64,000 bases of DNA, taken from NCBI GenBank assembly GCA_044892525.1, contig CM097885.1, positions 6,636,001 through 6,700,000 of the forward strand. Direction: 5' to 3'. A program made the translations under genes and the position numbers. Every line of letters begins with the position of its first letter. Position 1 is the stretch's first letter. Positions 27,937 to 28,450 of this stretch are shown here, in pieces. The notes below the pieces were generated by a model that did no database searches, was not told where the DNA came from, and worked only from the letters and a program-made list of their open reading frames with translations. The DNA comes from Schmidtea polychroa. Lineage: Eukaryota.

Positions 27937-28450
27937 ATGTCTCATTTTATGGAAAATCTTTTAAGCGAACTTATCAACAAGAATATTATGGAAAGCCTCA
28001 GTTTCCTAGTCGATCGGACCGAAAAGATTATCGAAGGAAATCATATTGATTATGAGGATGTGCTCAATTCCGAATGCATCGAAACGAAAAAATTCTATTT
28101 TAATAGGATTTTTAACTGCCTATGCGACGAAGAGATGAAGTGGACCCGAATACTAGTAGGTTCGCTTATATGAAGATCATCATTGAAAGAAGTTTATGGG
28201 ACTCTGAACATTATTATCAGTGGTCTCAAGAAGTAATACTTTTATAATCTATATTTTATTAATATTTATTTTCTAGATAATCAAGTCAAAGTTTCAACCA
28301 TGGATTAAAGCCAATGGCGGATGGGGCGTACTGAATCAACTCACCAGAAATGCGAAGGAAATAGATAAACAGAAAATGAAATTTAAAAACTATATAAAAC
28401 TTGCAACAGGTGTTGCTATTTTGTATGCTTTATCGCGATTTTTTAAATAA
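27937..28450 (+). pseudogene. Bcl-2-family protein (BH1, BH2, C-terminal TM); one intron, one frameshift
   Basis: FNRIFNCLCDEEMKWTRILVG(fs)FAY is BH1-like; intron 28233-28276; FQPWIKANGGW is BH2; tail IKLATGVAILYALSRFFK. Confidence 0.8.

Follow-up and report, generated by a model that had tools for sequence, protein, structure and literature searches.

The question raised here is whether a mobile element in the genome of a planarian can carry a Bcl-2-family gene that escapes an annotation track, and what such a gene would do. The locus lies in a stretch of 64,000 nucleotides (nt) from Schmidtea polychroa (GenBank assembly GCA_044892525.1, contig CM097885.1, positions 6,636,001 to 6,700,000 of the forward strand), the whole of which we call the window. 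From the letters alone, a sequence-only reading had proposed that positions 27937–28450 hold a Bcl-2-family gene inside a Maverick element, split by an intron and a frameshift and acting as anti-apoptotic cargo, which would fit a real infectious cycle. We conclude, with a probability of about 0.8, that the window holds a dead, frameshifted copy of a two-exon, tail-anchored Bcl-2-family cargo gene near the left terminal inverted repeat (TIR) of a very abundant Maverick/Polinton (adintovirus-like) element, and that intact copies of this gene likely encode pro-survival mimics.

Gene model and frame break

The ATG at 27937 starts an open reading frame (ORF) of 78 codons, which ends at 28173. At about 28158–28160 the window is one base short compared with intact copies, and past this frame break the +1 frame (28122–28247) continues to make sense, reading …RILVG / FAYMKIIIERSLWDSEHYYQWSQE, as far as a GT at 28233. 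The parts of the gene are the following.

27901–27907, plus strand: TATAAAT word, 36 nt upstream of the ATG, read directly and kept in subfamilies A and B (see below); a possible TATA box
27937–28232, plus strand: exon 1, 296 nt long as against 297 nt where a copy is intact
28233–28276, plus strand: intron of 44 nt, GT..AG and AT-rich, its AG ending at 28276
28277–28450, plus strand: exon 2, 57 codons plus stop (coding 28277–28447, stop 28448–28450)
28446–28465, plus strand: AATAAA (28446–28451), which shares bases with the stop codon, and a site of poly(A) addition (28465), placed from the sequence and a contig end

The translation of exon 2 starts with IIKSKFQPWIKANGGW (also given as IIKSKFQPWIKANGGWGVLNQL) and ends with LATGVAILYALSRFFK. 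Within it are the Bcl-2 homology 2 (BH2) word, WIKANGGW, which has the W-x5-G-W (WIxxNGGW) form, and the hydrophobic tail LATGVAILYALSRFF, after which comes a basic residue. The frame is kept across the two exons (99 + 57 = 156 codons). The details first proposed, namely 156 codons, an intron at 28233–28276, a frame break and an ORF track limited to 78 codons, were all present in the sequence, and an ORF-only annotation track misses this gene.

A DNA search of the organism's own genome (781-Mb assembly) gave 40 scored matches of 96–100% identity out of 1757 first-look candidates, which we refer to as subfamily A; the window copy and a twin identical to it, on contig C144, are counted in these 40. 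We took 20 of the scored matches as loci, again with the window and the twin among them, and recorded the state of each part of the gene.

Open 297-nt exon 1: 13 of 20 copies
Exon-1 length out of frame: 4 of 20
Premature stop within exon 1: 3 of 20
GT donor: 20 of 20
AG acceptor: 19 of 20
Intron of 44 nt: 20 of 20
Full exon 2 (57 or 59 codons): 18 of 20
Wholly intact gene: 12 of 20

Genomic copies that restore the frame do exist, as the proposal of a frameshifted gene implied, with the gene intact in 12 of the 20. The frame break is specific to the window copy and not a property of the gene; in the window the Bcl-2-like copy is a pseudogene, and the element around it is defective. The twin on C144 (C144:8096–8696, locus L001) is 100% identical to the window copy, frame break included, and is probably the same locus assembled twice. 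All further work was done on natural intact copies, mainly that at locus L004.

Variants in 18 copies were counted against L004, with 87 synonymous and 387 non-synonymous sites. Those shared by at least two copies comprised 12 synonymous and 16 non-synonymous changes, corresponding to a ratio of non-synonymous to synonymous variants per site (pN/pS) of 0.30 (binomial p 0.0024). The bias was weaker and not significant for singleton variants (pN/pS 0.61, p 0.09). This is the pattern that would be expected if the propagating lineages were under selection and decay followed insertion.

Assignment to the Bcl-2 family

The protein P0003 (UniRef C9WPR4) is named Bcl2-like protein, comes from Schmidtea mediterranea and carries the Pfam domain PF00452. 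In BLASTP, residues 40–126 of P0003 aligned without a gap to residues 13–99 of exon 1 (25% identity, E 1e-9), and residues 127–182 aligned, also gap-free, to residues 1–56 of exon 2 (32% identity, E 7e-12). Because the two gap-free alignments meet at residues 126/127 of P0003, the exon products abut to the residue, tail anchor included, and such a junction on a protein already placed in the family speaks for the splice model as well as for the Bcl-2 assignment. The window's own pieces gave E 1e-4 for its exon-1 piece (P0003 residues 40–102) and E 3e-11 for its exon 2 (residues 127–180, 31% identity, gap-free). The tail LATGVAILYALSRFF aligned with the tail of P0003; its best 15-residue Kyte-Doolittle mean was 1.56, with a K preceding it and R and K inside or behind it.

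The Pfam gathering cut-off for PF00452 is 31.4 bits. The two exons of subfamily A are not scorable as one piece, as the 44-nt intron is out of frame, and exon 2 of subfamily A alone had no Pfam match. For exon 1 alone, PF00452 was the top match in each of the four intron-containing subfamilies described below (and the sole one for A and C), with values that all remained below the cut-off (E 0.036 for A, 7.9e-4 for B, 3.5e-4 for C and 2.1e-4 for D). Five followed-up loci of subfamilies C and D reached 32.1–34.5 bits, over the cut-off, at profile positions 6–100; there the match spans both exons because the intron length is a multiple of three and is read through (with one TAG) in the six-frame search. 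The protein of the intronless subfamily E scored 32.7 bits (E 1.1e-7). The sister subfamilies C, D and E thus score above the cut-off, and the single exons of the window's own subfamily A below it.

A profile made of Maverick sequences only (A7, with no host sequence) matched 142 PDB sequences at E<=1, the best being Bcl-xL (E 4.9e-6), and all of the best 60 of these 142 matches were Bcl-2 family members. Comparison with six host paralogues by hhalign gave E 1.7e-4 for exon 1 and 6.3e-6 for exon 2, in adjoining template columns. In the ESM Atlas, 18 of 30 matches were Bcl-2 clusters (top score 0.93), and PF01691 (E1B-19K) appeared in one cluster only, with a score of 0.85. A phmmer search of exon 1 against the sequences of solved structures found nothing below E 0.5, with falcipain tying with A1/Bfl-1 at 14 bits. 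The W, G and W of BH2 are the sole three invariant columns of the host paralogue alignment. Taken at the level of sequence, the P0003 alignments, the PF00452 scores of C, D and E and the Bcl-xL match of the Maverick-only profile support the proposed membership of the gene in the Bcl-2 family.

Structure prediction was applied to exon 1 of L004 and to the full-length intronless subfamily E protein. Both AlphaFold models were of low confidence: six helices for exon 1, with a mean predicted local confidence (pLDDT) of 62 and a predicted template-modelling score (pTM) of 0.41, and eight helices for subfamily E (pLDDT 64.6, pTM 0.56). The best Foldseek match of the exon 1 model was BFL1 (E 0.7, TM 0.38). 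The subfamily E model gave a best E of 0.011 (prob 1.00, TM 0.45–0.50), with all matches listed being Bcl-2 or Bcl-xL. The ranked lists of both models consisted nearly entirely of Bcl-2 family chains. The models would be weakly supportive of a Bcl-2 fold at best.

Sister subfamilies

A protein database search with exon 1 found only P0001 (90% identical), and a search of protein representatives only P0002 (61% identical); both are unspliced ORFs, and no spliced full-length protein was found among the representatives. P0002 led to subfamily B, for which there were 150 scored matches of 94–99% identity out of 2399 candidates. A genome search with PF00452 added subfamilies C (L058, L061, L064), D (L059, L060) and E, which is intronless (L057 and its copies). 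The same search also returned host-type genes at 46–68 bits and many 29-bit matches inside open frames of 1000–3000 codons; the latter fit Burro retroelements, with their BCL2-like motif.

Subfamilies A–D have the gene, its promoter region and the flanking genes in common, at 77–84% DNA identity. Their intron stands at the same codon and measures 44, 45, 46, 48, 51 or 54 nt, and the exons stay in frame throughout. Exon 1 of C and D is 66% and 71% identical to that of A, respectively. The subfamily E protein (144 residues), for which a search for homologous proteins found none, could be aligned, starting at its residue 1, with subfamily A exon 1 (21% identity, E 1e-6) and continued colinearly into the BH2 region. 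Across five subfamilies whose protein sequences are 29–79% different, the gene has kept its start, its splice sites, BH2 and the tail, and P, W, I, N, G and W of the BH2 region are invariant across A–E.

The two subfamily D copies L059 and L060 (C1:203692554 and 203700632) form an inverted pair 8 kb apart, in which the Bcl-2-like region directly adjoins pPolB-like sequence. This suggests a short rearranged or palindromic derivative.

Transcript evidence

None of the sequencing runs is on record as RNA. Runs X1 and X2, which are two samples of one study, contained contigs resembling complementary DNA (cDNA). For subfamily B, the homologous 46-nt GT..AG intron was skipped exactly (joint 1803->1850) in one contig each of X1 and X2. 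In the window, one X1 contig begins at 28277 and is preceded by 10 loose letters that equal the end of exon 1, and one X2 contig ends at 28465 and is followed by 21 A that are absent from the DNA. X1 holds unspliced contigs too. Splicing and polyadenylation were thus found in cDNA-like contigs. The spliced form predicted for the gene was borne out by a complete splice joint in sister subfamily B, in both X1 and X2, and by the 10-letter loose end alone in subfamily A.

Other features of these data were less easily read. At the window, X2 also showed 15 loose A after 27937 and 16 loose T before 28254, for which we found no explanation; a further transcript end, priming at an internal site or a variant copy could account for them. 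Runs X3 and X4 gave, over 27800–28560, contigs of about 80–100 nt with summed word depths of 10^5–10^6 along the whole stretch. These contigs, very deep but short, include odd joints of one contig each, which we left uninterpreted, and X3 and X4 may be small-RNA or otherwise enriched libraries. No contigs of runs X7 and X8 were placed.

The Maverick element carrying the gene

The proposed position inside a Maverick was corroborated by TIRs, by homology to sister copies and by element genes around the locus. The element occupies about 26802–42223, has lost its middle, and holds the Bcl-2-like gene about 0.7 kb inside the left TIR. Its other features are listed below.

26802–27229: left TIR remnant (pair 26994–27210 / 41561–41777, inverted, 92%); the ends of the sister copies match
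27336–27716, minus strand: 126-codon ORF, the first gene inside the TIR; weak coiled-coil-type Pfam matches only (E 0.004); conserved in sister copies
30229–30666, minus strand: TATA-binding-protein (TBP) single-repeat ORF, 145 codons (PF00352, E 3.1e-15)
30766–31113, plus strand: A32-type packaging ATPase, N-terminal fragment (PF00910, 3.7e-7; PF04665, 1.2e-4), cut by tandem repeats
31100–36000: 30–60-nt tandem-repeat block of about 5 kb (families D5–D7, D10, D14 and D19; several related, two blocks)
36979–37470, plus strand: integrase (rve) ORF fragment (PF00665, E 1e-8)
40838–41401, plus strand: RING-finger ORF, zf-C3HC4_3 (PF13920, E 2.8e-9), adjoining the right TIR; same gene at L029:7587–7913
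41561–42223: right TIR, from the inverted repeat and the ends of the sister copies

Four sister copies matched the window at about 27140–31100, near 36000, near 40000–41450 and at the inverted ends; between about 31100 and 35996, megablast gave no match to any of the four. The tandem-repeat block, at which the ATPase is cut (31113), stands in place of the internal genes of the sister copies (ATPase to capsid). The flank that holds the 126-codon ORF is common to subfamilies B–D at 77–84%. The RING of the 40838–41401 ORF is of the type with which IAP proteins end, although this ORF showed no BIR domain.

One sister copy (L028 plus L029) is an 18-kb element with inverted ends of about 0.75 kb that are 80% alike. 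Its order is TIR, coiled-coil-type ORF (minus), Bcl-2-like gene (plus), TBP-repeat ORF (minus), A32-type ATPase, rve integrase, pPolB with Endonuclease VII, RING ORF and TIR. The ATPase is whole in this copy (L028, 5023–5649, 208 codons; PF04665, E 5.3e-6), the integrase (L028, 6263–7366) has E 2.9e-5, which is below the Pfam cut-off, and the pPolB of L029 matches PF03175 (E 4.7e-18 and 2.8e-6) and is preceded by an Endonuclease VII domain. The large unnamed ORFs of the window and of the sister copy matched no Pfam family.

The TBP-repeat ORF recurs at L028:4486–4923 (minus) and L067:2914–3360 (plus), with 145–149 codons and E 1e-14 to 3e-15, and neighbours the Bcl-2-like gene in subfamily E as well, distant though that subfamily is; there the gene also adjoins an integrase and an ORF of 1369 codons that includes an Endonuclease VII domain. 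Since the Bcl-2 and TBP pair is kept in subfamily E, the pairing is of long standing among these elements. In a subfamily B element (L073:3441–7887 and L074:4880–9295; C1:224755441–224771295), the TIRs are 4.45 kb long and 99% alike, and each contains the Bcl-2-like gene. The termini of this element are tandem copies of a 27-nt unit, in which the exact ends and the expected target-site duplication of 5–6 bp are unreadable. The list of subfamily B matches contains many other plus/minus pairs 5–16 kb apart.

A chance ORF, or a host gene merely lying beside a transposon, was also considered and rejected, because all the copies that we examined have the gene together with its flanks.

Proposed function and alternative explanations

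In an intact protein, the tail would insert into the mitochondrial outer membrane or the endoplasmic reticulum, and the groove formed by BH1 and BH2 would bind the BH3 helices of host death promoters; the protein would then postpone cell death wherever the element is active. The gene would have been captured from a host gene, not the reverse. Its origin may lie in capture as cDNA with later intron gain, or in the reverse history. To our knowledge, the viral Bcl-2 homologues described to date are pro-survival. The pro-survival reading is made because of these homologues and because of the wording 'anti-apoptotic' in the available part of PMC8502044. Taken on its own, this direction, which is argued by analogy, appears somewhat more probable than its opposite.

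Several observations weigh against the overall reading. The window copy cannot make the protein, and pPolB is missing from the ORFs of 150 codons or more in the window element. Subfamily A never passes the Pfam cut-off, the intact exon 1 reaching 15 bits (E 0.036) as its sole Pfam match. Neither a BH3 nor a BH4 motif was identified, and BH1 is divergent, with KWTR in the window versus NWGR in the host paralogues L045/L048 and L052; W and R are kept, and P0003, the closest relative, has RWSR at this place. With either structural model, Foldseek returned no match at E<=0.001, and the VIA-align score of exon 1 versus Bcl-xL (Z 5.0–5.1, 84 of 99 residues) was tied with that of AP2 helical repeats (Z 5.4–6.1). 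That X1 and X2 are RNA runs is a guess, for which poly(A) ends are the sole backing. Finally, membership in the Bcl-2 family does not separate pro-survival from pro-death members.

One alternative is a Bcl-2-fold death promoter, i.e. a Bax/Bak-like pore former that the element would use late, for instance for particle release. We consider it unlikely. Bax (E 2e-5) and Bak (6e-4 to 7e-4) are likewise matched by the Maverick-only profile, yet its best matches are Bcl-xL; the tail anchor and BH1/BH2 are common to the pro-survival and pro-death classes and no BH4 motif was seen, but the helix-2 region has no recognisable BH3 word either, the closest cellular relative is named Bcl2-like, and the available part of PMC8502044 words such genes as anti-apoptotic.

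It is quite improbable that the Bcl-2 fold serves a non-mitochondrial role, blocking autophagy or, in the manner of poxvirus Bcl-2-like proteins, innate immune signalling. Three features are kept here that poxvirus signalling inhibitors are not known to possess: the BH2 word, the tail anchor and a colinear match to a cellular Bcl2-like protein along the full length. The divergence of BH1 (KWTR) would agree with such a role, as would one ESM Atlas set (rank 3) that mixes PF00452 and Poxv_Bcl-2-like (12% and 11% of its members).

That the gene is a passenger with no selected function, a host gene fragment captured once and copied along with the element, is highly improbable: damage in 8 of 20 copies and the non-significant bias of singletons (pN/pS 0.61, p 0.09) would suit it, but the gene has survived, from its start and splice sites to BH2 and the tail, in five subfamilies 29–79% apart in protein sequence, its shared variants have a pN/pS of 0.30, it is spliced and polyadenylated in cDNA-like contigs, and in subfamily B it occupies both 4.45-kb TIRs.

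A bolder form of the pro-survival reading is that a still-active planarian adintovirus captured the bcl2-like gene of its host, which then acquired an intron, a promoter of the TATA type on which the TBP of the element itself acts and, in one subfamily, a place in both long TIRs, and that more than 1000 expressed copies would measurably shift the balance of cell life and death in turnover and regeneration. As a whole, this chain of events is unlikely.

Comparison with known systems

The available part of Starrett et al. 2021 (PMC8502044) describes Bcl2 and IAP homologues, worded as anti-apoptotic, in adintoviruses, the animal Mavericks. As in those elements, the Bcl-2 homologue is here an accessory gene of an animal element with pPolB and integrase, and TBP-like accessory genes are listed there too. 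Our case is set apart from what that part of the paper describes by a spliceosomal intron, by a place at or in the TIR and by a nameable host relative; the host here is a planarian, whereas the same text contains neither 'flatworm' nor 'planarian'. Bcl-2 cargo is thus already known for adintoviruses. To the short printed remark in PMC8502044 the present locus adds a well-anchored case. This case offers a checked gene model, spliced and polyadenylated cDNA-like contigs, a nameable host relative and conservation over five element lineages. For annotation, it means that thousands of Bcl-2 matches in such genomes are element cargo and not host genes.

Adenovirus E1B-19K, herpesvirus BHRF1 and the Bcl-2 homologues of other large DNA viruses are genes of free viruses, and their function has been shown. 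The proposed logic, that of a pro-survival mimic, is the same here, whereas the carrier is endogenous and the role is proposed by analogy.

Planarians harbour a second kind of mobile element with a Bcl-2-like module, the giant Gypsy-like long-terminal-repeat (LTR) retroelements called Burro, which carry a BCL2-like domain (Grohme et al. 2018, as described in the available part of PMC6431247). In Burro, as far as that description goes, the domain lies inside a retroelement polyprotein, whereas the Maverick gene is free-standing, spliced and part of a DNA element. Maverick exon 2 matched L063, used for the Burro comparison, weakly (E 0.003–0.007). Our literature search found nothing uniting Maverick/Polinton, Bcl-2 and planarians except PMC6431247, which is on Burro.

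The closest cellular relative in the genome is at locus L056, the product of which is 87% identical to P0003. The relationship of P0003 to the Maverick gene is colinear over the full length, tail anchor included, with 25% and 32% identity to the two exons of A and 40% to E, and BH2 and the W..R of BH1 are common to both. The host gene differs by some 28 extra residues, located N-terminally and in the loop, and in the position of its intron, which directly follows GGW in the host gene and stands 12 codons before the first W of BH2 in the Maverick gene (subfamily E having none). L056 looks single-copy, and an adjoining ORF looks, by eye, like a cellular amidohydrolase gene. Elsewhere in the genome, L045–L051 (C4:89.95–90.83 Mb) comprise seven PF00452 matches of 68 bits within 0.9 Mb, in two alternating forms, and look like a tandemly amplified host-type Bcl-2 gene with the canonical NWGR.

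Cell death and turnover are central in planarian biology. Planarian polintons are, according to the available part of PMC8532177, piRNA-controlled and de-silenced upon cell differentiation, so that a Bcl-2 gene present in mass copy provides a testable link from a mobile element to host cell survival. Mavericks are also a major repeat class in Dugesia, as stated in the accessible portion of bioRxiv 10.64898/2025.12.11.693146.

Other features of the window

A second Maverick-like element lies at about 46000–60757, in opposite orientation. It contains pPolB with Endonuclease VII (48220–50202, E 2.7e-28), an integrase (59370–59831), a chromo-like piece (58709–59257) and large unnamed ORFs, among which a 748-codon ORF (52121–54367) resembles only unnamed eukaryotic clusters, from arthropods, of about 735–776 residues. 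No Bcl-2-like gene was noticed in this element, and no search of the window was aimed at one. Its integrase region is 77–86% like 37057–39145 of the first element.

Inverted repeats of 1–1.4 kb with 99% identity and ORFs with reverse transcriptase and RNase H (together at 13758–15199 and 25322–26762; 44538–45836; 15744–16211) are parts of LTR-type retroelements nested around the left end of the Maverick. The window as a whole is AT-rich, with a GC content of 0.20–0.42 per 2 kb.

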